From an uncultured Candidatus Saccharibacteria bacterium (GTDB lineage: Bacteria; Patescibacteriota; Minisyncoccia; Phycocordibacterales; G965230995): 64,000 nt of DNA. Below, piece by piece: positions 1,589 to 54,628 of this stretch; position 1 is the first letter of the stretch; each line of letters starts with the position of its first letter. Below the pieces are notes generated by a model that searched no databases, had not been told where the DNA came from, and saw only the letters and a list, made by a program, of their open reading frames with translations. The translations under genes and the position numbers were made by a program. Location of the stretch: positions 464,213 to 528,212 of the forward strand of contig OZ246398.1 of NCBI GenBank assembly GCA_965230995.1. The letters are read 5' to 3'.

Positions 1589-1649
1589 TTTTAACCGCCC
1601 GGCCATATGCACATCGTGCACTGGGTTCGGGCGGTTGCGTCGGCTATCC

Positions 1650-2153
1650 TTAGTAGCCGAGGGATTGTTTTTGTCTGTTGATGATCATCCTCACGGTTTG
1701 AGGTGAGGGGGTGAGCATGCGGTCCCCGCACACCTGAAGGTGCGCCTCCTTAATCAGGTGATTGAGTGTGAATGCCAGATCTGCAATGTCGGTCGCAGGG
1801 GGGATCACCACCTGTGGTGGAACGTGACCGGGTTTTTCTGGCGGGCTCTTAACCTTTGACCAGAGCCCGCACGTGACGGTACTCAGGACGTTGTGTCGTA
1901 CCAACCGGCGTTGGTATCTCTGCATCAGACGCCTGTGATAACACAAGTCGTTTTCAGCCTTGAGACGCATTTCTTCGTCTCGAATGGCCTGACTGATGAC
2001 CCCGTCCCAGCTGACCGGGATCCACTCTCCGTGCAGGTAAGATGGAAGGAGCACTCTCGAGAGAGCCTCTGTCATCATTGGGCACGTGAAGGGAGATCCT
2101 GCGATCGTGTACGGCACGATCGCAATTTCTCGTGGTTTCGGCAAATCTCTCAC
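1650..2153 (-). CDS. Hypothetical protein encoded in a GC-rich islet (GTG start, RBS aacGGAGG upstream)
   Basis: 167-aa ORF inside a visibly GC-rich ~620-bp insert (about 1590-2215) between the FemAB gene and the tRNA pair. No recognisable domain. Confidence 0.4.
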   Translation of the reverse strand: MRDLPKPREIAIVPYTIAGSPFTCPMMTEALSRVLLPSYLHGEWIPVSWDGVISQAIRDEEMRLKAENDLCYHRRLMQRYQRRLVRHNVLSTVTCGLWSKVKSPPEKPGHVPPQVVIPPATDIADLAFTLNHLIKEAHLQVCGDRMLTPSPQTVRMIINRQKQSLGY

Positions 2154-2329
2154 AAAAACCTCCGTTTGGCTTCAAGGTTCGGCTTCCGGTTCCGCAAAAA
2201 ATATAACCTAATATAGTAAAATAGTCAAATTTTTAATTCACACATACAATGAATTTTCTTGTTCTTGAAGAATTAATATTTTTTAAACAAAAAACCTCAA
2301 AGCATTACTTTGAAGCTTAATGTTTGTAG

Positions 2330-2411
2330 TGCCGAGGATGGGGGTTGAACCCATATCCCGTTAGGGACACGATTTTAAGTCGTGCGCGTATACCAATTCC
2401 GCCACCCCGGC
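2330..2411 (-). tRNA. tRNA-Leu (anticodon TAA)
   Basis: Acceptor gccgggg/cctcggc, anticodon loop cttaaaa, long variable arm, T-loop ttcaacc. Confidence 0.8.
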
Positions 2412-2418
2412 ATAGGTG

Positions 2419-2492
2419 AGGTGCAGGCCGGGGTTGAACCGGCGCATAACAGTTTTGCAGACTGTCGCGTTAACCAACTTCGCCACTGCACC
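2419..2492 (-). tRNA. tRNA-Cys (anticodon GCA)
   Basis: Acceptor ggtgcag/ctgcacc, anticodon loop ctgcaaa, T-loop ttcaacc. Confidence 0.8.
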
Positions 2493-2623
2493 ATATTTAT
2501 TTTTTCAATGTTCAAGCTCTAAATAATCATATCTGTAGTTAGCCTCCGCTAGCCGGTGGACTACCCCTACCAATGCTTGTTATTTCAAGCATATACATTT
2601 ATATCATAAAAAAAGACCAGGTT

Positions 2624-2956
2624 CTACCTATTTTTGTCTGATTGAATTATGTGTTCAATCTTCTGTCTGTTCTTTTCTCCCATATCAATTTCAAATGAAA
2701 AATGGGGGAGAACTCTCATACGAATCTTTCCCTTGAGAAAATTTCTCATTTCTATTCTTTTTCTGTTGAGAAAATCCATCACAGCTTCCTCTTTTTCTTC
2801 GGGTAATACAGAAACATACACTATTACATCTTTGCCTTTGTTTTGTAATTCTATATTTGTAACAGTTATGAGCGAAGTTCTGTTTGATTGCAAACCGATG
2901 AACTGTGCTGTCATATTTTTTATTGCCTCGATTGTTCTTTCTTCTTTTATGCTCAT
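2624..2956 (-). CDS. rbfA: Ribosome-binding factor A
   Basis: 110 aa, RbfA-like sequence, immediately downstream of infB (conserved infB-rbfA order). Confidence 0.7.
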   Translation of the reverse strand: MSIKEERTIEAIKNMTAQFIGLQSNRTSLITVTNIELQNKGKDVIVYVSVLPEEKEEAVMDFLNRKRIEMRNFLKGKIRMRVLPHFSFEIDMGEKNRQKIEHIIQSDKNR

Positions 2957-2957
2957 A

Positions 2958-4495: not shown

Positions 4496-4963
4496 TTATT
4501 TAATTGAATTTTGTGCTTTGTTTATAACATCACGTTCTTCTTCGGAAAGTTCAAAATCAGAGCTGTTCGAAGTGAGACCTTTTGCAAAAACGCTAACGCG
4601 ATCTCTTGAGTAGAGGCTCGAAATTACTACTCCATTGCCGTCTTCGTCGATAAAAGCAGATGCAAAGCTCTGGTTTCCACCAGCACCTGTTCCCTTGAAT
4701 GGATTGAATCTGATTACTTTGACTGCTTGTATGCTTCTTCTGATTCTCTTGTCATCATAAACAAGTTGTTTTTCGGTTTTTTTTCTGAATTCCTCGATTT
4801 TTTCAATCTCCTTGCTGATTGTTTTGATTGAATCTTCGATGGATACACTTCCTTTTCCAAGAAGCATCTTGCCCATCCTCATTTCTATTCTTATTAACCA
4901 AATGGCGATTATCACAATAACCGCAAGTAAAACAATGATAAGTTGGTTTATGTCGAGTATCAT
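4496..4963 (-). CDS. DUF4446-like membrane-anchored protein
   Basis: N-terminal TM helix; RFNPF…GGNQSF motif typical of DUF4446. Confidence 0.45.
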   Translation of the reverse strand: MILDINQLIIVLLAVIVIIAIWLIRIEMRMGKMLLGKGSVSIEDSIKTISKEIEKIEEFRKKTEKQLVYDDKRIRRSIQAVKVIRFNPFKGTGAGGNQSFASAFIDEDGNGVVISSLYSRDRVSVFAKGLTSNSSDFELSEEERDVINKAQNSIK

Positions 4964-5134
4964 AGATGTATTTTAAAAAAACTATTATTTCCCCGAACCG
5001 CTTTAAAGTCTACAAGAAACCATTATACATATTGACAGGGCTTTTGTAAAACTACATTGTAATGTAACATACAATACATATGAATATATTTAATATTCTA
5101 AAAAAGAAAAAAAAGAGCAAAGATTCAATATATA

Positions 5135-10216: not shown

Positions 10217-11044
10217 TTATAGATCTGCTCTTATGCACATAGAAAAATTTTGTGCATTTTCGCAAGATTTTCCAATATCTGTAATTCGGTATTTTTCTTT
10301 CAAGACTTCAAATTCTCCTACATCATCAATTAGACCATGATCATAAGCCAATTTATCAGAATATGCAGGTAGGACATATTTGTAGCTAAAACCAATCTGA
10401 GAATCTTTGTCAGCGATTCTGTTTACGTGTTTAACGAGGGTGTTTGTGCAGTTGTTCGTAATGGTGTTATAGAATTGTGGTTTGTTGTAGAGACTATTAG
10501 TTTTGTTCATCATATCCATAAACAAGTCTCTAGCCTTTGTCTTGCTTATTTTTATCGGGTACATGTAGACATTTCCATCCTCTCTATAATTTGTTCGAAG
10601 TTTTGTAACGTCTCTTTCGTCTGCAACAACATATATCATTTCAAACTGTCTAAACATGCCTTTGAATACATTATAAGATTCGCCTTTTTCTCTTCGTGCT
10701 TCGATTGAAATTGCAACACGTTTTCCATCTTCAAAACCAAAAACAACATAAGTGTGTGCAGTTGGTGGGTTAAATGGTGCGACAACAAAATCCACCGCAT
10801 AAAGTTTTGATAGATCGTATGTTTCGTCGTAATAACCGGGAGTAAAATCTAGAGTAGATTTATATGTAAAATTTCTTACATTGTATATCTTCATCATATC
10901 CCCGTTCATTTCAAAGTGAGCAAGCTTTTCATTGTCGACAACCCAATCACGGTTGTTGCTTGGTCTGACAATGAGAGCAAAGATGCACCATCCGATAAAT
11001 AAAATAATTATTATCCAAACTAAAACTTTTAGAAATTTTTTCAT
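10217..11044 (-). CDS. DUF4105-like exported protein (N-terminal signal anchor)
   Basis: 275 aa with NNCTN motif and DUF4105-like pattern. Confidence 0.45.
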   Translation of the reverse strand: MKKFLKVLVWIIIILFIGWCIFALIVRPSNNRDWVVDNEKLAHFEMNGDMMKIYNVRNFTYKSTLDFTPGYYDETYDLSKLYAVDFVVAPFNPPTAHTYVVFGFEDGKRVAISIEARREKGESYNVFKGMFRQFEMIYVVADERDVTKLRTNYREDGNVYMYPIKISKTKARDLFMDMMNKTNSLYNKPQFYNTITNNCTNTLVKHVNRIADKDSQIGFSYKYVLPAYSDKLAYDHGLIDDVGEFEVLKEKYRITDIGKSCENAQNFSMCIRADL

Positions 11045-11061
11045 AAATACATTTTACATTA

Positions 11062-11440
11062 ATAGGGAGGGCGTGGCGAGGAGAGGGGTTGAGGGTCCGA
11101 ACCTTACGGGGTTAGTACCGTGATTGGATTTAGGAGGGATTGATTGAGGAATTCGGTCACAACTCTTCTGCTACGATAAATCTACGCAACGAAGGTCGCG
11201 ACCCCGCCTCGGCTACAGTTTCTCGTTCCTCGAAACTGGCTTCGCAGCCTCCGTCTTTCGAATCCCTCCCTATACGCTACATAAGTACAACAAAAAAACG
11301 CTATCGCGTTTGTTTTGTGTATTTTGTGAGGACTCGAACCTTACAGGTTCAGTGCATAAGTTAGGATTTTGATTGGGAGGGATTGATCCCGCAGTTACTA
11401 AGTAAAATAATTCGTTCGTAAACTCACTCTTATTTTACTA
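11062..11440. repeat. Mosaic of short repeated modules upstream of tRNA-Tyr. Includes an X module (gaaccttacRGgttMagt…gattggattt) at ~11088 and ~11336, a Z module (ggagggattgat) at ~11122 and ~11376, Y module copy B at 11158-11215, and ttcgtaaactca at ~11410 (also at ~303).
   Basis: Direct sequence comparison with 205-320 and 18544-18600. Internal terminator-like hairpin at ~11296-11325. Confidence 0.6.
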
Positions 11441-11573
11441 AGTACTGCTGGACGCGGCTCGACGTCGTACTCGCTCCGCTCCGTGCGACATGTCTCCGCC
11501 GGTTCGAATCCCACGCAAAAGCAAAACTGCTTTTGCTTCCCTACGCAAAAATGCACCAAAGGTGCATTTTTTT

Positions 11574-11655
11574 GTGCGTAGGGAGGGATTCGAACCCCCG
11601 TAGACTATGTCGCCTGATTTACAGTCAGGTGCGATTGACCACTCCGCCACCTACG
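11574..11655 (-). tRNA. tRNA-Tyr (anticodon GTA), long variable arm
   Basis: Acceptor gcgtagg/cctacgc, anticodon loop ctgtaaa, T-loop ttcgaat. Spurious ORF 11438..11650 overlaps it. Confidence 0.8.
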
Positions 11656-11766
11656 CATTTATAGGAACGAGTATAACATACTTTAATATTTTTGGTAGGG
11701 CAAAAAAGTATGACAAAATGGCAATTTTTGATATCATAAATACCATATAAATTTAATCCATTTTTT

Positions 11767-15550: not shown

Positions 15551-15826
15551 CTATTTCTTTAGGCTAATAAAGAATACTCCCGAAGTAATAATGTCCAATA
15601 TCTGCCAGGTACTTTTATCAAGATAGAAAGGCCAAATAGGATTAAACAGAACCGCTGTTACAACAAAGATCCAACCCCACTTTTGACTATTTGTGGTAAA
15701 AGAATTATAAGCAGAATAACATGCAATTATCATTATTGCCCACCTTAAAAATTCATAGTAACCGTAAGGTAAACTAAATACGCCAACCAGCAGAAGAATT
15801 GCGGCAATAATTTTAATGTCTTTCAT
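15551..15826 (-). CDS. Small multi-TM membrane protein, hypothetical
   Basis: 91 aa, three hydrophobic segments. Confidence 0.35.
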   Translation of the reverse strand: MKDIKIIAAILLLVGVFSLPYGYYEFLRWAIMIIACYSAYNSFTTNSQKWGWIFVVTAVLFNPIWPFYLDKSTWQILDIITSGVFFISLKK

Positions 15827-15832
15827 AATTTA

Positions 15833-16900
15833 TTAATTATCAAATAAAGTGCCTAGGTCTAATATTCTTCCAATACTTTCTGCAGTACCTGTCTCAACAT
15901 AAGTTGGTATACCTAAAACACATCCAGAATCCTTTATCGCTACTCCACCCGAACTCCCGTGTTCAATTTTTGCAGACGTTTTTATATAACGAAACCCACC
16001 ATAGTATTCGAAACCAGAAACAATTCCATCAGTGACTGTGAGCGAAGAACCTCCAACACCAGGGTATCCTAATATTGAAATATGTTCGCCTATATTTGAA
16101 GAAGCGCAATAAGTATTGGAGGTTTTATTTTTTGCATATTTAGCTAAGTCAGCTAATGTACCAGAATTTTCTCCAGATGTAATCTTAGGAATTAAATAAA
16201 TAAAATCAGCTCCATATTTATATGTCTTATAATCAGAAACTTCATATAATAAGTAATTTTGTGGATTTTTGTAATCAGGATATAGAGCAAAAATACATAA
16301 AGGTGAAGAGTTGTCATCTGGTTGTGTAACATGTAGATTTGTTTCAACAAAATAAGTTGGAAGATTAGAAGTAGATGTTTTATATAAAACACCGGAGCCT
16401 GACTGTATCTCATCACCGCTATAGTCAGCTGAGCAAAATATTTTAACGATAGACGGAGATATTGAAGACAAAATATTATTTGTAGAATTATTATTAATAG
16501 TAACTATACTTGAATTTTTTATATTAGTTTCTAGTTTACTTATCTCTAGCTCTTTCTTTGCTAGTTCTATTTTTTGAAGACGCAATTCTTCTGTTGTAGA
16601 AGCAGTAATATTATTTAGTTTATTTTGGCTTTCCTGTAATTCTTTTATAGTATTTTGAGTTTTATTATATGACAAATATAAAAATAAAAATAAAAATAAA
16701 AATAAAAAGATAATCAGTACTGATGATCCTATAATGTTACGATTATTTTTGACCTTAGACTTACAAAGTTTTAGAAAGTTCGATAATATTAAAATAATAT
16801 TTATTGTTGATTCACGATTATCAAACTTTTTACCACATTCATCGCAAAAAATGCTGTTATTTTCTAATTCATTTCCACAATTGTCACAAAAAACTCTCAT
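15833..16900 (-). CDS. Membrane-anchored trypsin-like (S1) serine peptidase with N-terminal double zinc ribbon
   Basis: CxxC…CxxC twice at the N-terminus, TM helix, coiled coil, C-terminal HGSSGG serine motif. Contains an in-frame (aaaata)n hexanucleotide repeat encoding FLFLFL. Confidence 0.55.
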   Translation of the reverse strand: MRVFCDNCGNELENNSIFCDECGKKFDNRESTINIILILSNFLKLCKSKVKNNRNIIGSSVLIIFLFLFLFLFLYLSYNKTQNTIKELQESQNKLNNITASTTEELRLQKIELAKKELEISKLETNIKNSSIVTINNNSTNNILSSISPSIVKIFCSADYSGDEIQSGSGVLYKTSTSNLPTYFVETNLHVTQPDDNSSPLCIFALYPDYKNPQNYLLYEVSDYKTYKYGADFIYLIPKITSGENSGTLADLAKYAKNKTSNTYCASSNIGEHISILGYPGVGGSSLTVTDGIVSGFEYYGGFRYIKTSAKIEHGSSGGVAIKDSGCVLGIPTYVETGTAESIGRILDLGTLFDN

Positions 16901-16901
16901 T

Positions 16902-17957
16902 TTATATGCCTAAAAAGTTATCCACCAGAGAATAATAATCAAGCATTTTATTTGCTTCATTTTTTGATGAGCTATAGTCACGGTCAGACCAGCTGTCAAT
17001 TGATTCGCATAAATAATAACCAGCCCACTCCATGTCTATGGATGCGTTTTTATAAGAAGAAGGTAATCCTGTAAAGTTGTCTCTCAGATTTTTTGAATTA
17101 GTTTGAACTGCATAACAACCATTAATAACAGCACCCGCATAAACTGATGCCAGACTATAGTCACCTTTGTTATAAGCATTTAAGTAAGAAGTGTAGTCAT
17201 CTACTGATTTACTAAAGCTATTACGTATAGAAAGTAATTGATTTGAAAAAGATTTTAGAACCTCTTCTCCTCGTGCTTGGTCAGCTAATGTATTTGCACT
17301 ACTTATTGCCGCTTGAGCATTTGCTTCCGCTTTATCTTTTGCGGCTTGTGCTGAGGCAGCAGCTTGGCGACTTTTTTCTGCTAAGGCCTTACTTGCTGCA
17401 GAATCATTTTCTAAGGCTGTCATTAACCAGCCTCCAATCTCTGTTAATTTTGTTTGGACGTTATTATAATCTGGATAGGTTGAAGATATAGATTGTAAAT
17501 CTGTTTGTGCTGATTTTAAATCTTTAACAGTAGATGTGGAACTAATTTTTGCTACCGTATTATCAAAAAGAGTTTTGTAATCAGAAAATTTTTGATTATC
17601 TTCTTTTAATTTTGCGATCTCTTTTTTCTGGTTTTCAGTGCCATAATTTGAATCTAGAGTATTTAATATGCTCAATGAGCCAGTATAATCTTTATTTCTT
17701 TGAAGTTTCTCTGCGGTGTTAATTTTTGATGAGATTTTAATATAGGCGTTCGCATTATATCCACCATATAAAAGTCCAATAACTACTACAACACCAATAA
17801 TATAAGTCACTATTGGATTTTTCCAATTAAGTTTAAATTCTGTTATTGTATTTTTCTTTTCACTAGAACTAACAGATTCTGCTCCTAGAGAAACACCGCA
17901 AGAACGACAAAATTTGCTACCTTCACGATTTTCCTTTCCACATTCATCACAATGCAT
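16902..17957 (-). CDS. Zinc-ribbon / single-TM / extracytoplasmic coiled-coil protein; paralogous architecture to the downstream peptidase
   Basis: N-terminal CDECGK…CRSCG, TM helix, Ala/Gln-rich coiled coil. Confidence 0.4.
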   Translation of the reverse strand: MHCDECGKENREGSKFCRSCGVSLGAESVSSSEKKNTITEFKLNWKNPIVTYIIGVVVVIGLLYGGYNANAYIKISSKINTAEKLQRNKDYTGSLSILNTLDSNYGTENQKKEIAKLKEDNQKFSDYKTLFDNTVAKISSTSTVKDLKSAQTDLQSISSTYPDYNNVQTKLTEIGGWLMTALENDSAASKALAEKSRQAAASAQAAKDKAEANAQAAISSANTLADQARGEEVLKSFSNQLLSIRNSFSKSVDDYTSYLNAYNKGDYSLASVYAGAVINGCYAVQTNSKNLRDNFTGLPSSYKNASIDMEWAGYYLCESIDSWSDRDYSSSKNEANKMLDYYSLVDNFLGI

Positions 17958-17970
17958 GTTATTTTAAAAA

Positions 17971-18192
17971 TTATCTAATAAAATATCCGACATCTTTATT
18001 ATAAATCTTGGCAAAAGTTTGAAGTTCGACTACGTCAACTCTTTGCTGTCCTGATTCAACATTTGAAATATGAGATTGCGGCCGTTTTAATTTTTTTGCG
18101 ACTTCAACCTGTGTCAAACCTGATTCAATTCTAGCTTTTCTTAAACGCTCCACGAAATAGGCATATTCCTTTGTTCTAATTGACTTTGTCAT
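17971..18192 (-). CDS. XRE-family helix-turn-helix transcriptional regulator
   Basis: HTH_XRE signature LTQVEVAKKL…SHISNVESG. Likely start at MTKSIRT (the track starts 10 codons earlier). Confidence 0.7.
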   Translation of the reverse strand: MTKSIRTKEYAYFVERLRKARIESGLTQVEVAKKLKRPQSHISNVESGQQRVDVVELQTFAKIYNKDVGYFIR

Positions 18193-18543
18193 AATACTAA
18201 CATTGTCTATCCAAATAATCAATATCCAAATTTTAGATATTGTAATAAACTGTATTTAGTTCCTTCACACCCGCCCCCAACCCAAAACTGACGGAAACCA
18301 AAACAGCATTTCTCCCTAGGTCTCTCCGGCGGGCGAGAAAAGAAAGTTGTTCATGTTTTGCAAAAAACGAGCACCGAATCGGAATCGTCAGGACATTTTC
18401 AAATATTCGCCGAGGGTGATCCAGAGTCGGGTGGTAGGCTTCATTCTCCGCTTTCATTTTTGAAGGTGATTATCGCAAATGATATGATTAGAACACTAAA
18501 AACAAAAATCCCAGACACTTTCGTGTCTGAGATTAATGTTTTT

Positions 18544-18600
18544 GGTGCCGAAGGAGGGACTTGAACCTTACAGGTTCAGTACCCCGATTGGATTTTTCTG
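18544..18600 (-). repeat. Partial duplicate of the tRNA-Leu(CAA) 3' end (18544-18566), fused to an X-module copy (gaaccttacaggttcagtaccccgattggattt)
   Basis: Identical ~23 nt to 18707-18729; terminator hairpins on both sides. Confidence 0.7.
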
Positions 18601-18708
18601 TTCGTTCCACTCCAGAAAAATGCACAATCGGGCTTCAGTCCCTCACGAAAGGTTCCCCGAACCTTTCTCTTCGTCACACAAAAACCGCATAACGCGGTTT
18701 GTTGTTTG

Positions 18709-18790
18709 TGCCGAAGGAGGGACTTGAACCCTCATCCCTTGCGAGACACGATTTTGAGTCGTGCGCGTATACCAATTCCGCCACTTCGGC
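18709..18790 (-). tRNA. tRNA-Leu (anticodon CAA)
   Basis: Acceptor gccgaag/cttcggc, anticodon loop ctcaaaa, long variable arm, T-loop ttcaagt. Confidence 0.8.
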
Positions 18791-18916
18791 ATAGGTTACA
18801 GTGTACTAAAAATCTACTAAAAATCCAGTGCCGTTTTTGAACCCAACATTTTGTAGCTGTCTCACATTGTGATAATATATGCTAATAAAAGGAAATAATG
18901 CCTAATCAAATTTTGT

Positions 18917-23845: not shown

Positions 23846-23985
23846 AAATTCAATGTTTATAACTAAAAATGAAAATGGTCAAGTGTCTATGTATTTAATC
23901 TAGCTTTGCATTAAAAAAATTTTTTGGCAAGTTTATATAAAAACACAGGGTGCGCGGGAACTTCGTTCCCGCGCACCCGCACCAC

Positions 23986-32145: not shown

Positions 32146-32202
32146 GAATGACTGTGTTTTAATAAATATAGCACCGCACATTCACTCTAACGAGGACATC
32201 GT

Positions 32203-32376: not shown

Positions 32377-32475
32377 TTTCTCCCACCCTCACTCTGATCG
32401 AGTTTCTTGAGCCGGCCCTCCCACAGGCCGGCTTCAACCTTTCAAAAAAAGCCTTTTTCAAATATACTTACCTGT

Positions 32476-33530: not shown

Positions 33531-33559
33531 CAGCGAATTTTGCTTCGCAAAATTCGCTG
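33531..33559. promoter_or_regulatory. 13-bp-arm perfect palindrome (cagcgaattttgc-ttc-gcaaaattcgctg); same core recurs at 42954-42984
   Basis: Inverted repeat without a following U-tract; second copy lies between divergent gene starts. Confidence 0.4.
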
Positions 33560-35455: not shown

Positions 35456-35803
35456 ATGAAAAAAATCGATGATCTAACGAAAAGAATTATATCATTCCGA
35501 GACGCTAGGGATTGGAAACAATTTCATAATCCTAAAGACGTTGCTCTTTCGTTGGTGTTAGAAGCAACCGAGGTCATGGAACATTTTCAGTGGAAGAATA
35601 AGGAGGTGATGGATAAATATATAGTAACAAACAAAACTGATATTGGTGAAGAATTGGCAGATGTTTTGTACTGGATATTGCTCATGAGTCATGATCTCAA
35701 TATAGACGTGTTAGACGCACTAGAGAAAAAGATTAAAGTCAACGAAGGTAAATATCCGGTTGAAAAGGCAAAAGGTAAATATACTAAATACAACAAATTG
35801 TAA
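35456..35803 (+). CDS. MazG-like all-alpha NTP pyrophosphohydrolase
   Basis: EATEVMEHF and EELADVLYWIL (EExxE/D metal-binding motifs); 115 aa. Its stop codon lies 1 nt before the next gene's ATG. Confidence 0.7.
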   Translation: MKKIDDLTKRIISFRDARDWKQFHNPKDVALSLVLEATEVMEHFQWKNKEVMDKYIVTNKTDIGEELADVLYWILLMSHDLNIDVLDALEKKIKVNEGKYPVEKAKGKYTKYNKL

Positions 35804-35804
35804 T

Positions 35805-37850
35805 ATGTCTAATATAGTTACCTTTAAATATAATAAGAATAATTTTGACAAAATTAAGGATTATCATTTTGGAAAAAATTGGCCCGTGGTTTATGTCCTC
35901 GAAAACAAGAAAGAGGTTTATATCGGCCAGACAATAAATGCCTATTATAGAAGTAAACAACATTATGAAAATCCAGAGAGAAGAAAGCTAAGTGAGATTC
36001 ATATTATAACAGATGAGGAGTTTAATGTTTCTGCGACATTGGATATTGAGTCATGGCTCATTCAGTATATTTCCGCAGACGGTAAATATTTATTACAGAA
36101 TGGTAATGGAGGTCTAAGAAATCATAATTATTATGATAGGGTAAAATATGAGACTAAGTTCGAAATCACTTGGAATAAATTGCAGGAAAAGGGTATTGTG
36201 CATAACTCACTACATGACTTGAAGAATAGTGATTTATTTAAATACTCGCCATATAAATCTCTTACAGAAGATCAGTATATAATTTCAAGAGAAATTTTCT
36301 CGGATATTGTAAGTAGCCAGAACAACACAATTATTGTTAATGGAGGTGCTGGTATAGGTAAGACAATACTGGCTACTTATCTGCTTAAGTTTCTAAAGGA
36401 GCAAAAGGAAACAAGCCATCTTTCTATGGCCATTATTGTTCCAATGACACAGTTGCGCCAGTCAATTAAGAAGGTGTTTAAGAACATAAAAGGCTTATCA
36501 CCTGGTATGGTAATAAGCCCAAGTCAGGTAATTGGTGGTAAATATGATTTGGTCATTATAGATGAAGCGCATCGACTCCATCGTCCTTTAAATATTTCAA
36601 ATTTAGGCTCACATTACAAAAACAATGATAAATTAAGATTGTCGAAAAAAGAAGGAACTGAGTTGGATTGGATATTGAAGGAAACAAAAAAGCAAATATT
36701 TTTTTATGATGAAAAACAAACAGTGGGTCCATCTGGGGTTAGGAGTGAAGAATTCAAAAAAATAAATGCTAAAAATTTATTTCTTACAGGTCAAATGCGT
36801 ATTGAAGCTGGTGATGCCTACATTAAATTAATTGATGACTTTTTTAATCTTAGAAAAACAAGAAACAATAGTCTCGGAGAATATGAATTTGAGATTTATG
36901 ATGACATACGAAAATTATTTGATGACATAAAAGAAAGAAATACGAAACACGGTCTCTCTCGTGTTGTTGCTGGCTATGCTTGGCCATGGCATACAAAGCC
37001 CAATAGAAAAAAATCTAAAGATTACGACATAGAGATTGATGGATATAAGGCAGTTTGGAACTCAACAACTAAGGATTGGATGAATTCAAAAAATGCTATA
37101 AATGAAGTTGGGTGTATACATACTGTGCAGGGATATGGACTAAATTATGCTGGGGTTATAATTGGCCCGGAGTTTGGATATGATCCAAAAAGTAAAACTT
37201 TCTTCGTAGATAAGAAAAAATATTTTGACAGAAACGGTAGGGCTGGTGTTCATGATATATTAGAGCTAGAACAATATATTAAAAATATTTATAGAATTTT
37301 ATTAACACGTGGTATAAAGGGAACATATGTTTACGCTGTCGATAAAAATTTGAGAGATTACTTAAAAGATCAATTTAAGTTTAAAAATACTAAAGAAATT
37401 ATCAAAAGCAACAATATTAATAAAGAAAAAATACTTTCTCCATACGCAAATAACTATATTAATGTACCGTTAGTAGGATCTGCGCCTTGCGGAAATCCAT
37501 TATTGGGTGAAGAAAATATAGAAGATTATATTAAGGTAAAAAAAGAAAAAATAAAAATTGGATACAAATATTTTATTGTTAGGGCAGTTGGTGATTCCAT
37601 GAATATAGCTGGAATCAATGATCAAGATTTGGTTCTTTGTCGGTATTCGGAAAAGGGAGAAACTGGTGATAAGGTAATTGCGTTGTTGGGTGGTGAGAAT
37701 GTTACTATAAAGTTTTACGATAAAAGTGGAGATCGAAGAATACTACTACCAAAAAGCAGTAACCCAATACATAAACCAATTGTCCCAGAAGAGGGAGATA
37801 TTGTCCAGGGTGTAGTGCAGGAAGTTTTACCTCCTACTAATTTAAATTAA
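35805..37850 (+). CDS. Three-domain fusion: N-terminal GIY-YIG nuclease, DUF2075 (SF1-helicase-like P-loop ATPase), C-terminal LexA/UmuD-type S24 autopeptidase
   Basis: GIY-YIG: VVYVLENKKEVYIGQT…R…QHYE. DUF2075: Walker A IIVNGGAGIGKT, Walker B DLVIIDEAHRL, tail motif IHTVQGYGLNYAGVIIG. S24: cleavage loop VPLVGSAPC^GNPLLGEENIED, Ser motif VGDSM, Lys in VTIKFY, LLP…KPI tail. ATG at 35805 follows the MazG stop (the track's alternative start is 35760). Confidence 0.8.
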   Translation: MSNIVTFKYNKNNFDKIKDYHFGKNWPVVYVLENKKEVYIGQTINAYYRSKQHYENPERRKLSEIHIITDEEFNVSATLDIESWLIQYISADGKYLLQNGNGGLRNHNYYDRVKYETKFEITWNKLQEKGIVHNSLHDLKNSDLFKYSPYKSLTEDQYIISREIFSDIVSSQNNTIIVNGGAGIGKTILATYLLKFLKEQKETSHLSMAIIVPMTQLRQSIKKVFKNIKGLSPGMVISPSQVIGGKYDLVIIDEAHRLHRPLNISNLGSHYKNNDKLRLSKKEGTELDWILKETKKQIFFYDEKQTVGPSGVRSEEFKKINAKNLFLTGQMRIEAGDAYIKLIDDFFNLRKTRNNSLGEYEFEIYDDIRKLFDDIKERNTKHGLSRVVAGYAWPWHTKPNRKKSKDYDIEIDGYKAVWNSTTKDWMNSKNAINEVGCIHTVQGYGLNYAGVIIGPEFGYDPKSKTFFVDKKKYFDRNGRAGVHDILELEQYIKNIYRILLTRGIKGTYVYAVDKNLRDYLKDQFKFKNTKEIIKSNNINKEKILSPYANNYINVPLVGSAPCGNPLLGEENIEDYIKVKKEKIKIGYKYFIVRAVGDSMNIAGINDQDLVLCRYSEKGETGDKVIALLGGENVTIKFYDKSGDRRILLPKSSNPIHKPIVPEEGDIVQGVVQEVLPPTNLN

Positions 37851-37865
37851 AAAAAGTTAGCCCCT

Positions 37866-37890
37866 GCGGGTGCAGGGGCATGGACAACGA
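37866..37890 (+). terminator. Stem-loop agcccctgc-ggg-tgcaggggc after the fusion gene
   Basis: GC-rich hairpin immediately 3' of the stop codon; no clean U-tract. Confidence 0.4.
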
Positions 37891-37973
37891 ACGGGGCAAA
37901 ACGAACGAACGGGCGCCAGTTTGGTGGTTCCTAGCTCACCAAGCGAAGGAGTAAACGACAGGCCTGTTTACAC

Positions 37974-38567
37974 CTAGACCGGAGTGGAAGTGAACCACTT
38001 CCAGTGGAGAATGTGCATCGGGCTCACATTCTGATCTGGCAGGTCGGTGCGCGGCGTAGTGAGAACCATTTTGCGGTAATCATCCCAATACGCACGCTCC
38101 ATCTCCAGATAGGTGTTTCGGCATGCACCGGGGTTCTTGTCTATCTCGGCCCTAAGTGAGGACACGAGATCATCCAAGGTTTCGTGTACAGCGGGGTCTG
38201 CGGAGAATTCGTCCTGAGGTATGGTTGGCGTCTGTTGGTTTTGCCAACCCTTACTTACCACATCACGACGAGCGGTTTGCAACAATGCAAAGCAACTCTC
38301 CGTTGTGATTGGTGATGCGTTGTCGTCAGTCCAACACGAGGTAGCCCCGATGCTGTTCGGCATGTTACGCCTTCCGTTGAACCTGACGTCGAGAAGGCAA
38401 GCCCTGAGCTGAATGAGCTGGTGAATGTAGCAAGGACGTGCCGGAACAAGACCGTCTGCGGTCTTCTTCGAGAGAATCTTTACGCAAAGTCTCTCCAGTG
38501 GTCCTTGCATTACTTCCCGGACCCCATCCATGGGTCGTGAGTCACGGTGGTCGATGAGATTGCTCAT
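37974..38567 (-). CDS. Hypothetical protein, GC-rich islet gene 1 (RBS aaGGAGGac upstream)
   Basis: 197-aa ORF, atypical composition, own promoter-like motif at 38609-38633. Confidence 0.45.
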   Translation of the reverse strand: MSNLIDHRDSRPMDGVREVMQGPLERLCVKILSKKTADGLVPARPCYIHQLIQLRACLLDVRFNGRRNMPNSIGATSCWTDDNASPITTESCFALLQTARRDVVSKGWQNQQTPTIPQDEFSADPAVHETLDDLVSSLRAEIDKNPGACRNTYLEMERAYWDDYRKMVLTTPRTDLPDQNVSPMHILHWKWFTSTPV

Positions 38568-38608
38568 ATAGTCCTCCTTCGCAAGTTGTGGTTTCTCGGT
38601 TGTGTGTT

Positions 38609-38633
38609 CTATGACAAAACAGTTCTATTTCAA
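38609..38633 (-). promoter_or_regulatory. Conserved promoter/operator-like motif TTGAAATAGAACTGTTTTGTCATAG (minus strand) upstream of 37974..38567
   Basis: Near-identical to the motif at 39356-39380. Contains an AGAAC-N-GTTYT inverted repeat. Confidence 0.45.
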
Positions 38634-38733
38634 CACTATCACCATTCATATTTCAAGACAATATATATAAAAAGCGCCCCTCTACGTGAGAGGGGCGGGT
38701 GACACGGGGACGAGAACGGTGGTGCGGTGAAAA

Positions 38734-39330
38734 CTACTTCAGCTCAATCAGGTCGTGATCCACCATGTGCAACGCTGAGACCATGCGGACCCTCAGGTCA
38801 GCCCTGACCGGCAGGAGCTTTTCCTTGATCTTGTTCCAGTAGTTGAGTTCAGCCATGAGTGCTTGGAATTGATCGGGAGTAAGTTCCAGATCGTCCGTTG
38901 TGGCAATGAGAACGCCCACAATGGCATCAATAACCAAGTGGACAATCTGGTTTGCCCAGAACTTCTCCTTCTTGATCACGATGTGAGGAATCGGCGCCGA
39001 CGCGTCATGGGGGTGGCTGGCCAAGTGCTTTTGATGAGCGTGATCAGTGTGGATCAGGATACCCCGGCCACTCGAAGGGAAAAGAGCAAAAGAAGAACTT
39101 GGCGGTTCAAGCTCAGCATTCTTATATAGCTCGTGACCCCTGGCCTGCATCATGTTGTAGAGGACACAGAGGTGAACAGGGAAACGAGGACCTCTGCTTA
39201 CCCTGGTCATATTGTCCAACAAAAGATTGCAGACCCAGTCAAATTGATCCTCCAAGACATCAATCACGAGGGGTAGTGGTTCCAGTTCAAGTCGACGCAA
39301 CACCTCGAGGTCTGTTGTAGGTCCAGACAT
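38734..39330 (-). CDS. Hypothetical protein, GC-rich islet gene 2
   Basis: 198-aa ORF, atypical composition, own copy of the promoter-like motif. Confidence 0.45.
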   Translation of the reverse strand: MSGPTTDLEVLRRLELEPLPLVIDVLEDQFDWVCNLLLDNMTRVSRGPRFPVHLCVLYNMMQARGHELYKNAELEPPSSSFALFPSSGRGILIHTDHAHQKHLASHPHDASAPIPHIVIKKEKFWANQIVHLVIDAIVGVLIATTDDLELTPDQFQALMAELNYWNKIKEKLLPVRADLRVRMVSALHMVDHDLIELK

Positions 39331-39355
39331 GGCTTTCTCCCGTTATGGTTTAGCA

Positions 39356-39380
39356 CTGTGACAGAACGGTTCTATATCAA
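39356..39380 (-). promoter_or_regulatory. Conserved promoter/operator-like motif TTGATATAGAACCGTTCTGTCACAG (minus strand) upstream of 38734..39330
   Basis: Second copy of the 25-nt motif. Perfect AGAAC-c-GTTCT palindrome. Confidence 0.45.
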
Positions 39381-39503
39381 CATTAGCACTGTTACAAAAT
39401 CATCTAAATATTGACGAAATGCTGTGGTGATTTATAATAAAGGGATGATAACACGAAAATAGCTTAACATTATAAATTAAGTACCGCGCAGCGGTTTTCG
39501 TGT

Positions 39504-41532: not shown

Positions 41533-42942
41533 CTAAAAAAGTATATTTAGGATAACTCCTTTTATCGTAATATAAGCAAAATATATGAAGAACAAGGATA
41601 TTGCTGTCATTATGATATTTGTAATCGTGTTAGGACGAAGCTCTCTTGGAAGTTTTGTATTGTTTAGATAAATAAGTAGTGGTGTATAAATTGCCATTGT
41701 GAGACCCCCGAGAACTCCTGATACAGTGAGCCATGTTAGTGGTTGATTGTGTGGAATTAGAATTGCACCAATCAAAACAACAAAAATGACTATTGCATAA
41801 TACATATGCGAAAGACTGTATTTTTTTATATGTCTAAAAATTGAATCCGGATGAGCGAGGTGTGTGTTTGTATATATAATATCGCTAACAATTCTCGCAA
41901 GTGCGTCTATAACAGTCCACATAACTGAAAATAGCATAAGGAATGCCATCACAAGAAAAAGTTTAAAACCAAATACTCCCCACAGATCACCAAAAATGTT
42001 TGCTTGTACCACAGCAATTTGCATACCTTCTGGGACTAGACCTTTTGGTGTAAGTACAGCATAGGCATTTAAGGAAAGCAAAATTAATGTGAGAAAACCA
42101 AGAAGCCAAAAAACGAGACCTTGATCAATTCGAACATAACGCATCCAGCCTTTCCATTTTTTCAAATTTTCTTCATTTATTGGAAACGTATGTCCGATAG
42201 GGGAAACAGCTTCGGTTTTTCCTGTAATTGGGTTTGCTATTCTACCTGAATAATGACCCATACCATTTCCTTTGTCTCGATACCAGAGAGAAATACAAAG
42301 ATTGAGCATTCCGCCAGCACCAGCAAATACAACAGCAGTAAGAAGTGTATTCATCGGAACATCTGCGGGAATACTTCCGATATTAAACAAGCCTTTGATT
42401 GCAAGTTTTAATGTCTCTGCATCAATATTAAAGAAACTAAAACCGAGCAATATCAAAAAGAAAAGTGGAACGATAATCTTGAGGGTTTTTTCAAGCATTC
42501 CATAAGCCATTTTTCCACTAAAGGTAAGGATCAGTACCAGAGCAAGGGCGACATATGCCCAAGAATTATTTGTTCCAAAACCAAAAAGTCCGTTTAAGGT
42601 TGTTCCGATAGAACCAGCCCATCCCGGCCAAATATACAAAAGTATTGCAGAGGGTAACCAAAAAATTGGTATCCATTTAATTAATCTTGCAGAAGATGTA
42701 AAAAAGCTTTCTCCTGTTGCTAATGTATGTCTTGCGACTTCTTGGTTTATAAAAAACTGACAAGAAATACCGATTAATGCAAGCCATAATAAATCAAGCC
42801 CATATTTTGTAACCAAGTGTGGCCAGAGAATTAATTCTCCTGTGCCCATCGCAAGACCCATCACTACAATTCCAACACCGACGGCTTTTGTCCAATGTGG
42901 TGGATTTGGCAAATCTTTTGTTCCAAGTTTTGGATATATCAT
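41533..42942 (-). CDS. Polytopic membrane transporter (10-12 TM; family uncertain)
   Basis: 469 aa, hydrophobic throughout. Confidence 0.35.
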   Translation of the reverse strand: MIYPKLGTKDLPNPPHWTKAVGVGIVVMGLAMGTGELILWPHLVTKYGLDLLWLALIGISCQFFINQEVARHTLATGESFFTSSARLIKWIPIFWLPSAILLYIWPGWAGSIGTTLNGLFGFGTNNSWAYVALALVLILTFSGKMAYGMLEKTLKIIVPLFFLILLGFSFFNIDAETLKLAIKGLFNIGSIPADVPMNTLLTAVVFAGAGGMLNLCISLWYRDKGNGMGHYSGRIANPITGKTEAVSPIGHTFPINEENLKKWKGWMRYVRIDQGLVFWLLGFLTLILLSLNAYAVLTPKGLVPEGMQIAVVQANIFGDLWGVFGFKLFLVMAFLMLFSVMWTVIDALARIVSDIIYTNTHLAHPDSIFRHIKKYSLSHMYYAIVIFVVLIGAILIPHNQPLTWLTVSGVLGGLTMAIYTPLLIYLNNTKLPRELRPNTITNIIMTAISLFFIYFAYITIKGVILNILF

Positions 42943-42953
42943 AGAAAAATTAT

Positions 42954-42984
42954 AGCACGAATTTTGCGAAGCAAAATTCGTGCT
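42954..42984. promoter_or_regulatory. Palindrome agcacgaattttgc-gaa-gcaaaattcgtgct between divergent gene starts
   Basis: Same CGAATTTTGC-N3-GCAAAATTCG core as 33531-33559. Confidence 0.45.
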
Positions 42985-42995
42985 AAAATATAAAC

Positions 42996-43517
42996 ATGAT
43001 GTACAAAATAGGTGACGTTGTTTCTGTTAATAACAAAATGCAAAAGGGATATTCTTTTGTAATTTCAGAAAAAGAAGGTCAAAATTTTCATCCAGATTTT
43101 CGCCCGGATCTTTCTCCAAAGGAAATGCTCGAAATAGGTGTCTTTGGCGGAAAATATATGAGCGATATGCCAAGCGAATATCCAAAAGATTGGTTTAAAA
43201 ATGCAAAACTTACAACTGACGGAAAAAGACACGAGGAATTGAATTTTTTCAAAATAAATGCAAGTCAACCTCTATCTGTTTGGAGGAAAAAAGGATGGAT
43301 AAATGAAATGGACCCACGCGGTTGGTTTGAATGGTATTGCAGATATTATCTCGGAAGAAGAGAAAAAGACGAAGACGAAAGGCAAATAAAACGCTGGAAG
43401 GCCATAAAAAGACATATTGGCCAAATTGTAAAAAACTGCAAGGCTGGAGATCAGTTTTGCCGTCCAAAACAGAAACAGGCTATTCTCCACTGGGCATATG
43501 ACAGTAGAAAAATGTGA
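42996..43517 (+). CDS. Hypothetical basic protein (PRGWFEWYCRYYLGRR motif)
   Basis: 173 aa; no confident family assignment. Confidence 0.3.
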   Translation: MMYKIGDVVSVNNKMQKGYSFVISEKEGQNFHPDFRPDLSPKEMLEIGVFGGKYMSDMPSEYPKDWFKNAKLTTDGKRHEELNFFKINASQPLSVWRKKGWINEMDPRGWFEWYCRYYLGRREKDEDERQIKRWKAIKRHIGQIVKNCKAGDQFCRPKQKQAILHWAYDSRKM

Positions 43518-52152: not shown

Positions 52153-52252
52153 ATGCTATACTTTATTAACCGATATTCGACGCAAAGTGTGCGTGACGAA
52201 TATCATATTTATAATCGTCTATACGTTTAATTATACATCGACGAACATCTAT

Positions 52253-52561
52253 ATGACAAAAATAGACACAAAAAAGTTGGGGATAAACGAAGAAGAGCTC
52301 TGCCCGGAGTGTTTTAAAGTTGTCGGTTCATCCAGTCGTTACAAGCTGGTTTGTTTTTTGGGGCAAAAAAATGAGGGGGCTACTGTAACAGAGATTACAG
52401 ACAAACTCAAGTTGAAACAACCCACAGTCAGTCATCATTTGAATGTATTAAAATCAATAAATGCAGTATTATGTGAAGAAAGGGGCAAAGAAAGAGTTTA
52501 CAAGTTAAATGAAAACGCACACTGTTTTGAGGAATGTAAAATTCCATATGGTATAAATTAA
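52253..52561 (+). CDS. ArsR/SmtB-family HTH regulator
   Basis: wHTH pattern with ELCPECF Cys pair. Internal Met start MTKIDTKK chosen, because the track start overlaps the nrdD 5' end. Confidence 0.55.
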   Translation: MTKIDTKKLGINEEELCPECFKVVGSSSRYKLVCFLGQKNEGATVTEITDKLKLKQPTVSHHLNVLKSINAVLCEERGKERVYKLNENAHCFEECKIPYGIN

Positions 52562-52564
52562 TAT

Positions 52565-53656
52565 ATGAGATCATATATTGAACGAACAAAAAGTTTTTTA
52601 AATAAACACGAACGTCGAATATCCGTTTTTGCTCTCCTAGCCGGATTCGTTTTTGACTCTCTGACTCTGACTCAGATAGATAGGCTATATGACAATATGG
52701 TTATTATCGCGTATATCGTGATAGCTTCCATTGGTATATTTATAGTCAATCTATATAGTAACGGTAGAATAGTCGGTAGACTTTTTTCTCTGATTGATTC
52801 GATGTTTCCTATTTTGATTCAATTTGCATTTGGTGGACTTTTTAGCGCGTTTACTGTTTTTTACTCGAGGAGTGCTACTCTTTCTGGTAGCTGGCCATTT
52901 TTGCTTGTGCTTGTCGGTCTGCTCATCGGTAATGAATTTTTAAAGAAGCATTATAGATTGTTTACTCTTCAAATCGGGCTACTATTTTTTGTTGTCTATT
53001 CGTATTTGATTTTTGTGGTGCCAATTTTGTTACAAAAAATGGGGACGATCGTTTTCCTTACGAGCGGGGTTCTTGCTTATATAATTTTGAGATATTATTT
53101 GAAACTTTTTTCAAAATTTGTACCCGAATTATATTCAAAAGCAAAGTTCTGGATTAATTTATCAGTCGTTTCTATATTAGTTGTAGTTAATACTTTATAT
53201 TTCTTGAATTATATTCCGCCAATTCCACTATCGCTAAAGCATATTGGTGTTTATCACAGTATTGTGCGGGGTAGCTCTGGTGATTTTGTTGTTAGATACG
53301 AAGAAAAACCTTGGTACAAAAAATTCTTTTTTACTGATGTTTACAAAAAAGAAGGAGACGGACGTGTTTATGTGCTTAGCAATATTTATGCACCTGTTGA
53401 TTTAACCGCAGATATTATTCACGAATGGCAAAAATATGACGATGTAACTGGTGAATGGAAAAAAGTTTTTGAAATATCATTTCCAGTAAGGGGCGGTAGG
53501 TCTCAGGGTTATAGGGGATATAGCTACAAAGAAAATCCAGATATCGGATTATGGAGAGTAAATGTAAAAACAGCCAAAGGTCAGATTGTTGGTAGACAAA
53601 AATTCCGAGTCGAGCAATCAACAGGCAATATAAACATTGTTCAAAAGGTGATGTAA
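52565..53656 (+). CDS. Multi-TM membrane protein with C-terminal soluble beta-rich domain (DUF2914-like)
   Basis: 363 aa; about six TM helices, then a 150-aa hydrophilic domain. Confidence 0.35.
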   Translation: MRSYIERTKSFLNKHERRISVFALLAGFVFDSLTLTQIDRLYDNMVIIAYIVIASIGIFIVNLYSNGRIVGRLFSLIDSMFPILIQFAFGGLFSAFTVFYSRSATLSGSWPFLLVLVGLLIGNEFLKKHYRLFTLQIGLLFFVVYSYLIFVVPILLQKMGTIVFLTSGVLAYIILRYYLKLFSKFVPELYSKAKFWINLSVVSILVVVNTLYFLNYIPPIPLSLKHIGVYHSIVRGSSGDFVVRYEEKPWYKKFFFTDVYKKEGDGRVYVLSNIYAPVDLTADIIHEWQKYDDVTGEWKKVFEISFPVRGGRSQGYRGYSYKENPDIGLWRVNVKTAKGQIVGRQKFRVEQSTGNINIVQKVM

Positions 53657-53945
53657 ATATCGTCCAAAAAACAATATAGATTTTGATTTTAAATTAATTT
53701 AAATAACCTTACGTTAATCTAAATTAGTAAAAGTTCGTTTTAAAAATTATTTTACAAAAAAAGTCATTTTTGATTGGAATTTTTAGATACTCAAAAAATA
53801 TCATTTCCGATATATCCTCTTAACCACAAGGATATATCGAAAAACCCTTATTTAAAGCCATTTGTGTACTTGACAAAAAAGATATATCGGTTATGGTTTT
53901 GCCAGAACCAGATGTTTGAGAACCACCATAAACCGGGAGATTCCC

Positions 53946-54461
53946 ATGAGTGCCCAAGACTGGAAACAGGCCGTGAACGAAGAGCGCGAAAGAAAAGAGC
54001 AGGAGAGAAAGGATCTTGCGGAAGCAGAAGCAAGGATGAAAGTTCGCGTGGCTGAGGTGTGGACTGTCCTGCATGAGTTCGAAAAAAGTGACGCTGCGAA
54101 GGATGCTTCTGAGTTTCTCCGTATGCTCTACAAGGAGGGCTACGTCATCGGAGGGTATGTGAGTTATTCCATCAGTAGGGTTAGAAGCCACAAGAGTGTA
54201 CCGTTGCAGCTCGGACGATACGCTAAGGTGCAATTTGATTTTGTGGATTCTGTGTGGCTTTTTTTATCTTATCCTCCTGATCCTTTTTTTAGTTTTGCCT
54301 TCACGTATCGTGATGATAACGATGACGGCAGAGCTCTCGAGAAACTCCTGAGTGAGGATCCGGAACTTGATGGCAAAAAGATTCTGAAACTCTTCACTGA
54401 CTTTCTTGACGAGGAGGTCAAGAAGTGGAAACTGAGGCAGGCGGAGAAGTCAGGGAAGTAG
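53946..54461 (+). CDS. Hypothetical protein in a GC-rich islet (start at MSAQDWK)
   Basis: The 5'UTR/RBS accataaaccgggagattccATG is almost identical to that of 38734..39330. Promoter-like TTGACA-16-TATGGT with gatatatc half-site repeats upstream. Confidence 0.45.
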   Translation: MSAQDWKQAVNEERERKEQERKDLAEAEARMKVRVAEVWTVLHEFEKSDAAKDASEFLRMLYKEGYVIGGYVSYSISRVRSHKSVPLQLGRYAKVQFDFVDSVWLFLSYPPDPFFSFAFTYRDDNDDGRALEKLLSEDPELDGKKILKLFTDFLDEEVKKWKLRQAEKSGK

Positions 54462-54628
54462 CGGACGACTCGACGCCCGTAAAACCACCCGAGGGACATT
54501 GGTCCAGGGTGGTTTTTCTTTTGTATTATGTTCCTAAAGGCAAAAGCGAAGCTTTTGCCTTTCTAGATGTTAAAGAAATATTAACTCGATACCTTTTAAT
54601 TAATTAGTCTTTGTAGTAAAATACTGGA

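Follow-up and report, generated by a model that had tools for sequence, protein, structure and literature searches.

The 64,000-nucleotide stretch analyzed here (hereafter, the window), which covers positions 464,213 to 528,212 of contig OZ246398.1 (assembly GCA_965230995.1) from an uncultured Candidatus Saccharibacteria bacterium, is AT-rich as a whole (GC content of 0.366, i.e., 36.6%) and contains a series of short GC-rich islets, raising the question of whether these islets represent one kind of element or several. The series is a compositional class and not a single element, and the contents of the islets are heterogeneous; the explanation that fits best, and that we hold to be reasonably probable, is a combination of foreign orphan protein genes, small structured RNA genes, and a native small gene.

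All seven GC-rich segments listed in an earlier sequence-only reading of this stretch were recovered when islets were called with a 100-base sliding window and a cut-off of GC ≥ 0.48, and their GC contents were approximately 47–52%. The calls comprise positions 1–533 (GC 0.49, taking in a tRNA; GC 0.51 for positions 1–300), 1562–2521 (GC 0.49, taking in two tRNAs), 23899–24479 (GC 0.51), 30409–31045 (GC 0.52), 32163–32483 (GC 0.47), 37803–39393 (GC 0.51), and 53880–54564 (GC 0.48). The sixth islet had been thought to end at 39500; its GC-rich part actually stops at approximately 39355.

Five complete open reading frames (ORFs) in these islets, here named A, B, C1, C2, and D, are each predicted to form a self-contained single-gene transcription unit. 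Gene A (1650–2153, minus strand) encodes 167 amino acids (aa) with an isoelectric point (pI) of 9.4 and has a GTG start after GGAGG; its neighbours are a FemAB-family gene on one side and tRNA-Leu/tRNA-Cys on the other. Gene B (23986–24525, minus strand; 179 aa, pI 10.0) is located between dprA (24600–25526) and topA (21680–23845). Genes C1 (37974–38567; 197 aa) and C2 (38734–39330; 198 aa) follow each other on the minus strand, and gene D (53946–54461; 171 aa) is on the plus strand. In all five units, a Shine-Dalgarno sequence is found 5–9 nt ahead of the start codon and a GC-rich hairpin directly 3′ of the stop codon, while the region upstream of each complete unit is AT-rich and the 5′ untranslated region (5′ UTR) is 30–50 nt long. 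The hairpins include a terminator of B at 23949–23980 on the minus strand (GGGTGCGCGGGAAC...GTTCCCGCGCACCC followed by a T-run), the terminators of C1 (37860–37879) and C2 (38675–38697), both found by a scan tool, the terminator of D (54481–54523), and a hairpin between A and the convergent FemAB gene (1593–1636) that is without a good U-tract on the A side. Promoter-like sites precede A (2200–2228, minus strand; TTGACT-17-TATATT, with 10 of 12 matches to the σ70 consensus), B (24574–24603, minus strand; TTGACT-18-TTTAAT, read by eye, with the −35 element overlapping the dprA stop codon), and D (53870–53897, plus strand; TTGACA-16-TATGGT). A further islet at the left end of the window (Z; 1–155, plus strand) consists of the last 36 codons (1–111) of a GC-rich ORF truncated by the window edge, with a hairpin (113–155) after it.

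We conclude that A, B, C1, C2, and D are putative protein genes, as their ORF lengths and their low GC content at second codon positions (GC2), a periodicity typical of real coding sequence, both indicate. While the longest ORF in dinucleotide shuffles of the islets averaged 89–103 codons, the observed ORFs have 167–198 codons (p = 0.004–0.03 for each islet, with p = 0.029 for A, and approximately 1e-6 when these values are combined in a Fisher calculation). In all five genes, GC2 is the lowest of the three codon positions (0.33–0.44, as compared to 0.54–0.64 for first and third positions, GC1 and GC3).

The codon usage of these five genes differs sharply from that of the rest of the window. 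Their GC3 values (0.643 for A, 0.553 for B, 0.611 for C1, 0.613 for C2, and 0.544 for D) lie 6.4–8.8 standard deviations above the host mean (z = 8.8 for A); the 46 host ORFs in the window have a mean GC3 of 0.275, with a standard deviation of 0.042 and a maximum of 0.368. AAG represents 68% of Lys codons in the islet genes vs. 21% in host genes, and CAC represents 83% vs. 39% of His codons; among Leu codons, CTC has a share of 38% vs. 13% and TTA of 1% vs. 22%, and ATA has a share of 11% vs. 38% of Ile codons. Overall, islet genes have a GC3 of approximately 0.6, are rich in CTC/CTG for Leu, and use AGA/AGG for 52% of Arg codons. Relative synonymous codon usage (RSCU) showed no correlation between individual islet genes and host genes (r = −0.24 to 0.14), whereas leave-one-out correlation of each islet gene with the pool of the others gave r = 0.31–0.66. 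Mutual RSCU similarity among the islet genes was above a null in which the protein sequences and the GC3 of every gene are held constant (mean of 0.437 vs. 0.248 ± 0.085; p = 0.007), and the genes therefore have a dialect in common beyond mere GC-richness. A, B, C1, C2, and D thus come from a coding background of approximately 50–55% GC with a common codon dialect, which is unlike that of a 52%-GC Paceibacterota locus (CGC/CGG at 72% of Arg codons and AAG at 25% of Lys codons).

Horizontal acquisition, which the sequence-only reading had listed as one possibility for the islets at large, is the best reading for these five genes, which would have been acquired from a source of approximately 50–55% GC, and probably also for the truncated gene Z as a sixth acquired orphan; foreign common codon usage, the lack of family matches, and the absence of B at the corresponding site of a relative (see below) all point in this direction, while islets 30400–31060 and 32160–32460 are otherwise explained. 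One source, or a few similar sources, would account for the islet genes. The orphan genes may have entered the spacers between genes through illegitimate or site-specific recombination and would have yet to drift to host composition. Their products are predicted to be soluble cytoplasmic proteins, for which context and orphan status would make an accessory role in conflict or host interaction most likely.

Homologue searches returned next to nothing for the islet proteins. B matched only itself among 1.84 billion representative proteins in an exhaustive phmmer search, C2 and D matched only themselves among 5.8 billion clusters in a deep protein search, and A, C1, C2, and D are singleton clusters. 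No relatives of A or C1 were found in viral contigs (scan) or in phage genomes or plasmids (tblastn), and none of the seven islet peptides, including Z, had a match in Pfam, PHROGs, PADLOC, or NCBIfam. A phmmer search of the islet proteins against PDB sequences gave only noise (E ≥ 0.03), and a tblastn search against all fetched loci of relatives gave a single match, that of the small gene in islet 32160–32460 (gene E, see below). Single-sequence AlphaFold2 models reached a predicted local distance difference test (pLDDT) score of 39.7 for C2 and 32.4 for B.

Islet 30400–31060, in the gap between ClpC and Dus, differs from the islets above. No credible ORF could be identified in it (the longest has 77 codons, as compared to a shuffle mean of 101), and the islet as a whole folds at z = −7.1 relative to shuffles. 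Promoters and terminators read from the sequence suggest that the ClpC-Dus gap is an intergenic slot with two independently transcribed small structured RNAs. Unit 1 (30420–30652, plus strand) would be an RNA of approximately 230 nt with a structured core, preceded by a promoter at 30386–30413 (TTGACA-16-TAATAT) and ending in a very strong terminator at 30583–30652 (fold z = −3.6); unit 2 (30658–31046, plus strand) would be a structured RNA of approximately 350 nt with a promoter at 30658–30685 (TTGACA-16-TATCAT) and a terminator at 31022–31046 (fold z = −4.85). The high GC content of this islet reflects stable RNA structure, which is conspicuous against an AT-rich background. The suggestion that the islets are GC-rich structured RNAs is thus borne out for this islet and not for the others, and it belongs to no known Rfam family; Rfam gave no match to the islet at E ≤ 10. 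Rfam at the gathering threshold found only seven tRNAs in the window, and E-value scans of the window, of islet 30400–31060, and of the relatives found nothing in the islets. ARAGORN gave no credible call of a transfer-messenger RNA (tmRNA); when introns were allowed or thresholds relaxed, its calls were of low quality, and we did not trust them. The islets thus had no covariance-model match to known housekeeping RNAs (RNase P RNA, signal recognition particle RNA, tmRNA, or 6S RNA); the sequence-only reading had seen no consensus motifs of the first three by eye.

Four contigs from relatives allow comparison at this slot: L004 (ClpC identity of 66%; contig of 5 kb), L005 and L011 (58%; contigs of 4–5 kb), and L006 (45%; contig of 44 kb). 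The ClpC-Dus spacer is GC-rich and structured in L004 (348 bp; fold z = −5.3), L005 (574 bp; z = −8.4), and L011 (838 bp; z = −12.8), and is 48 bp long in L006. Alignment of the spacers of the window, L004, L005, and L011 detected homology between L005 and L011 only. As the same GC-rich structured slot is occupied by non-homologous RNAs, the slot is conserved while its RNA content turns over, and relatives would thus fill it with different small RNAs. L005 (3611–3707) and L011 (3107–3208) have a common hairpin RNA in this spacer, with an 11-bp inner stem and a 25-nt C-rich loop, UUGCCAUCAUCCCnGCAC(A)nUCCCC; the inner stem shows three one-sided pair-preserving changes, the outer stems differ in sequence, and a covariance model of this hairpin had no match in the window or in L004. 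From these unpaired C-rich stretches, we infer only that the RNAs may be regulators pairing with Shine-Dalgarno sequences. Within unit 2, we also observed a 23-codon ORF, MNWYRHGFRSRLPPIRVPRGRLR (30922–30993, plus strand), after a strong AAGGAGAG ribosome-binding site; the predicted fold of unit 2 sequesters both this binding site and the start codon. The HGFRSRL stretch of this ORF recalls what we take to be the HGFRxRM motif of ribosomal protein L34, a resemblance that is probably a coincidence.

Islet 32160–32460 represents a third class. Gene E (32205–32375, plus strand), located between Dus and DnaX and encoding an acidic protein of 56 aa (pI 4.1), is 60% identical to a sequence in L004 (4696–4863) at the same Dus-DnaX position; the L004 copy lies within a GC-rich patch (4657–4991) and has a similar promoter and terminator context. 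The GC3 of gene E is only 0.386, and its GC content stems from first codon positions (Gly, Glu, Asp, Pro, and Ala codons) and from the terminator. Because it is conserved in L004 with the same composition, gene E is a native, conserved small protein gene. Conservation of islets with like composition in relatives, which the sequence-only reading had named as part of what would refute it, was thus found for two of the seven, namely for this gene (in L004) and for the GC-rich ClpC-Dus spacer (in L004, L005, and L011).

Comparison beyond these contigs was of limited reach. A ClpC scan of a collection of species-representative genomes yielded one distant contig, from a Paceibacterota metagenome-assembled genome (38% identity), and a metagenome scan with the gene E alignment yielded L004 again and nothing further. 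As the relatives are few and distant, the lineage belongs to poorly sampled Patescibacteria (candidate phyla radiation), which limits every comparative test. L006 keeps the order ParB-RelA/SpoT-TopA-DprA-SerRS-x-x-ClpC-Dus-small gene-DnaX, and its TopA-DprA spacer is 289 bp long, AT-rich, and gene-free, so that B is absent from this site in this distant relative; B was therefore either inserted relative to the L006 lineage or lost there.

Several observations weigh against the explanation favored here. As neither a donor nor a homologue was found, only composition points to transfer of A–D. Orphan genes tend to be richer in AT than the genome in which they reside, and phages do not usually exceed their hosts in GC content, making the source of the islet genes odd. 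L006 is the one informative relative, and for B only, as the closer relatives are represented by contigs of 4–5 kb. Around B, C, and D, no integrase, attachment site, target-site duplication, or terminal inverted repeat was found. Structure prediction failed (pLDDT of 32–40), so that any function is a guess. A (z = −5.4) and C1 (z = −4.1) fold better than shuffles, for which their terminators account in part only. Finally, the RNAs of islet 30400–31060 have no detectable homology to the RNAs of the relatives, their conservation being positional only.

Among the alternatives to acquisition, the one that survives best, while still unlikely, holds that A–D are native lineage-specific genes, either born de novo from GC-rich intergenic transcription units or held GC-rich by selection. 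GC-rich, independently transcribed non-coding units with fast turnover do occupy intergenic slots in this lineage, long ORFs can arise by chance in GC-rich sequence, the promoter regions look host-like, and a total lack of homologues fits de novo origin; however, strong codon-position periodicity and a specific common dialect beyond GC3 would be unexpected in young de novo ORFs, and five ORFs of 167–198 codons in five islets exceed chance. Improbable, in our judgment, is the broader proposal that the GC-rich units are a genome-wide class of independently transcribed lineage-specific orphans, both proteins and small RNAs, captured from the host of this episymbiont or from the mobile elements of that host and serving host interaction. 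The hint in its favor is the common codon dialect, which is unlike that of the resident genome and of the 52%-GC Paceibacterota locus and resembles what we take to be that of moderate-GC methanogenic archaea. Methanogenic archaea host some Patescibacteria (PMC9600506, PMC10936435).

That the islets are copies of one selfish mobile cassette family, either integron-cassette-like or similar to miniature inverted-repeat transposable elements, inserting at gene boundaries, also has a low probability. The units are alike in size and layout, Z and A adjoin tRNA genes (with a duplicated tRNA 3′ end beside Z), and two pairs of units share upstream sequence. C2 and D have in common a 5′ UTR motif of approximately 20 nt, CCATAA(A)C(C)GGGAGA-nnn-CCATG, which the sequence-only reading regarded as near-identical and as an argument for common origin. 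The motif is real; it is also short, contains two indels, and includes the Shine-Dalgarno sequence and the start codon, and its gapless form matched the D copy only, with at least one such match in 18 of 100 shuffles, so that it appears to be weak evidence of a common origin. A stronger match, which that reading had missed, is a 27-nt block upstream of C1 and C2 (24 of 27 positions identical) that contains an operator-like palindrome at 38612–38628 on the minus strand (ATAGAACTGTTTTGTCA) and its twin at 39359–39375 (ATAGAACCGTTCTGTCA); exact matches to the 17-nt core ATAGAACnGTTyTGTCA were found at these two sites only. C1 and C2 are weak paralogues (26% identity over 76 aa) and the sole related pair among the islet proteins, suggesting that they may be a tandem duplicate pair under a common operator-like palindrome, beside a defence-type helicase. 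Beyond these matches, all-against-all blastn of the islets gave only chance matches of 11–15 nt, and the islet ends have no DNA similarity. No common terminal motif was found, searches for target-site duplications and terminal inverted repeats around each islet returned only AT-rich 9–10-mers, the terminal hairpins differ in sequence and resemble ordinary terminators, and no integrase, transposase, or recombinase was found among the flanking genes examined in the 64-kb window, which is part of a genome of at least 743 kb. A selfish cassette family, as proposed in the sequence-only reading, is therefore unsupported.

We also observed three GATATATCG palindromes within 82 bp upstream of D (53808–53889), one of them inside the promoter spacer, as compared to 0.32 copies expected in the whole window; these palindromes are a possible candidate operator.

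Even less probable is that every islet is a GC-rich structured non-coding RNA gene, with the long ORFs a by-product of fewer stop codons. Islet 30400–31060 is truly of that kind, A and C1 fold beyond shuffles, and GC-rich shuffles of approximately 630 nt give longest ORFs of approximately 100 codons on average with maxima of 197–251. Nevertheless, in five of five islets the ORF is above shuffle expectation, starts after a Shine-Dalgarno sequence, and stops just before a hairpin; GC2 is lower than GC1 and GC3 in all five; the folds of B, C2, and D are unremarkable relative to shuffles (z = −1.2 to −2.2); and there is no Rfam family match.

Mis-assembly of the islets is unlikely, as Logan assemblies of runs SRR14271366 and SRR14271374 (contigs L001, L002, L007, and L012 compared; the C1/C2 junctions lie outside their coverage) match the window with 99.97–100% identity at the junctions of A, B, islet 30400–31060, and E, and also reproduce the right-hand junction of D. 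The genome was derived from metagenomic data, and at one tRNA gene L001 passes into the sequence of a related species; nevertheless, the base-for-base agreement of the 742,714-bp NCBI contig with independent assemblies of two runs at these junctions, together with the host-type promoter and terminator context of the islets (e.g., the B promoter overlapping the dprA stop codon), makes a chimeric assembly with sequence from a GC-richer organism of that sample exceedingly improbable. The 26-kb contig L012 begins at 53659, three bases past the stop codon of the gene that precedes D, where the AT-rich spacer leading to D starts, approximately 240 bp ahead of the GC-rich part. Other Logan contigs break inside tRNA-Leu genes. 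The L012 break could represent strain heterogeneity at that junction.

The combination of acquired orphan genes, structured RNA genes, and a native gene shows likenesses to several known systems. Horizontal transfer and genomic islands, representing up to 13% of genome length, have been reported in Patescibacteria (PMC12455944). Unlike such islands, the islets are single genes of approximately 0.6 kb and not multi-gene, and neither mobility genes nor a donor were found. Acquired orphan genes and compositional islets elsewhere are similar in their atypical GC content and codon usage, orphan products, intergenic or tRNA-adjacent sites, and own expression signals; however, the islets described here are GC-richer than their genome, whereas orphans are generally AT-richer. 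As in integron gene cassettes, small single-ORF units are each followed by an imperfect GC-rich inverted repeat; unlike cassettes, the units have their own promoters, are dispersed and not arrayed, show no attC-like consensus, and have no integrase or attI nearby. Non-coding RNA genes were reportedly described by Klein, Misulovin and Eddy, in PNAS in 2002, as GC-rich islands in AT-rich hyperthermophiles. Islet 30400–31060 and a set of tRNA-linked patches (see below) are similar, with promoters, terminators, and strongly negative fold z values, and are GC-rich because they encode stable RNA structure; however, they have no known family, and their sequence is not conserved even among relatives using the same slot.

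The sequence-only reading had also placed every islet between conserved housekeeping genes, which is true of some only. D is flanked by genes encoding a DUF2914 protein and an uncharacterised protein, and C1/C2 by genes encoding a defence-type helicase-S24 fusion and an ABC-F ATPase. The fusion gene (35760–37850, plus strand; 696 aa), which is not GC-rich, encodes a Schlafen-group-3/Nhi-like helicase with a C-terminal LexA-type S24 peptidase (Pfam; PADLOC Nhi, E = 1.2e-12), and a MazG-like gene (35456–35803) lies ahead of it; the C1/C2 neighbourhood thus looks like a variable, defence-type region.

GC-rich patches beyond those listed in that reading were found beside tRNA genes at 11039–11685 and 18235–18819, and a family of structured elements was observed directly downstream of the genes for tRNA-Leu(tag), tRNA-Tyr, and tRNA-Leu(caa), at 190–345, 11060–11300, 11330–11520, and 18540–18670, all on the minus strand (fold z = −6.2, −2.2, −6.7, and −10.3, respectively). 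Each element ends in a copy of the tRNA T-loop and acceptor 3′ strand and has its own terminator after this copy. The first ("alpha", linked to tRNA-Leu(tag)) ends in a 30-nt copy (197–226) of the 3′ end and flank of this tRNA (393–422) and contains a 63-nt repeat, D5 (225–287), that is 92% identical to 11155–11217; a second duplication of a tRNA 3′ end was found at 18537–18567 (identical to 18700–18730). The elements share a closing stem, GGACUUG/CAAGUCC, that uses the tRNA-derived piece, as well as a hairpin with a conserved loop, GAGUUUACGAA, on differing stems, and a counterpart in a related species (L001 14970–15130) shows a compensatory change in the closing stem. No Rfam match was found for these elements, including alpha, and the core of the D5 repeat was not found in viral contigs. 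These elements may be scars left at attachment sites by integrative elements that target tRNA genes, or they may form a new RNA family mimicking tRNA 3′ ends. The two tRNA 3′-end duplications, one of them beside Z, resemble such scars and cis-mobilisable relics of such integrative elements; however, the approximately 140–170 nt between the repeats are highly structured and gene-free, no integrase was found in the window, and B, C1/C2, and D are not beside tRNA genes.

Around the last of these elements, L001 matches the window at 99.97% up to the 3′ half of tRNA-Leu(caa) (position 18707); past this point, L001 represents a related species (L001 14970–16362; approximately 64–82% nucleotide identity), in which the tRNA is directly followed by DUF1653 and miaA. 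Four AT-rich genes at 15551–18222 of the window, encoding an Xre/CapH-like helix-turn-helix protein, two proteins of 351 and 355 aa (the latter with a protease-like C-terminus), and a 91-aa protein, are absent from L001, which suggests either an island linked to the tRNA or a switch of the assembly from one co-occurring relative to another. Elsewhere in the window, a perfect 23-nt palindrome, CGAATTTTGC(T/G)(T/A)(C/A)GCAAAATTCG, has copies at 33534–33556 and 42958–42980, which are 9.4 kb apart and 100% complementary to each other; one copy lies within a divergent promoter region (42935–43003).

Overall, the phenomenon is of an ordinary, known kind (i.e., islets of foreign orphan genes, and GC-rich RNA genes in AT-rich genomes), of which the window contains unusually clean examples; what is unusual is that the orphan genes are GC-richer than their own genome, that they are single-gene units, and that their codon dialect is without a match among anything sampled. 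For annotation, three GC-rich classes can be told apart in such AT-rich reduced genomes by GC content alone, namely orphan genes of foreign origin, small RNA genes that lack annotation, and a small number of native genes whose amino-acid usage is skewed; these classes should be kept separate. The five orphan proteins and two small RNAs, unannotated and family-less, are candidates for accessory functions, possibly in host interaction or conflict, of a candidate phyla radiation lineage that has been poorly sampled. If the islet codon dialect could be matched to a co-occurring organism, the source of the foreign DNA in this uncultured episymbiont, and possibly also the host of the episymbiont, could be approached from sequence alone.

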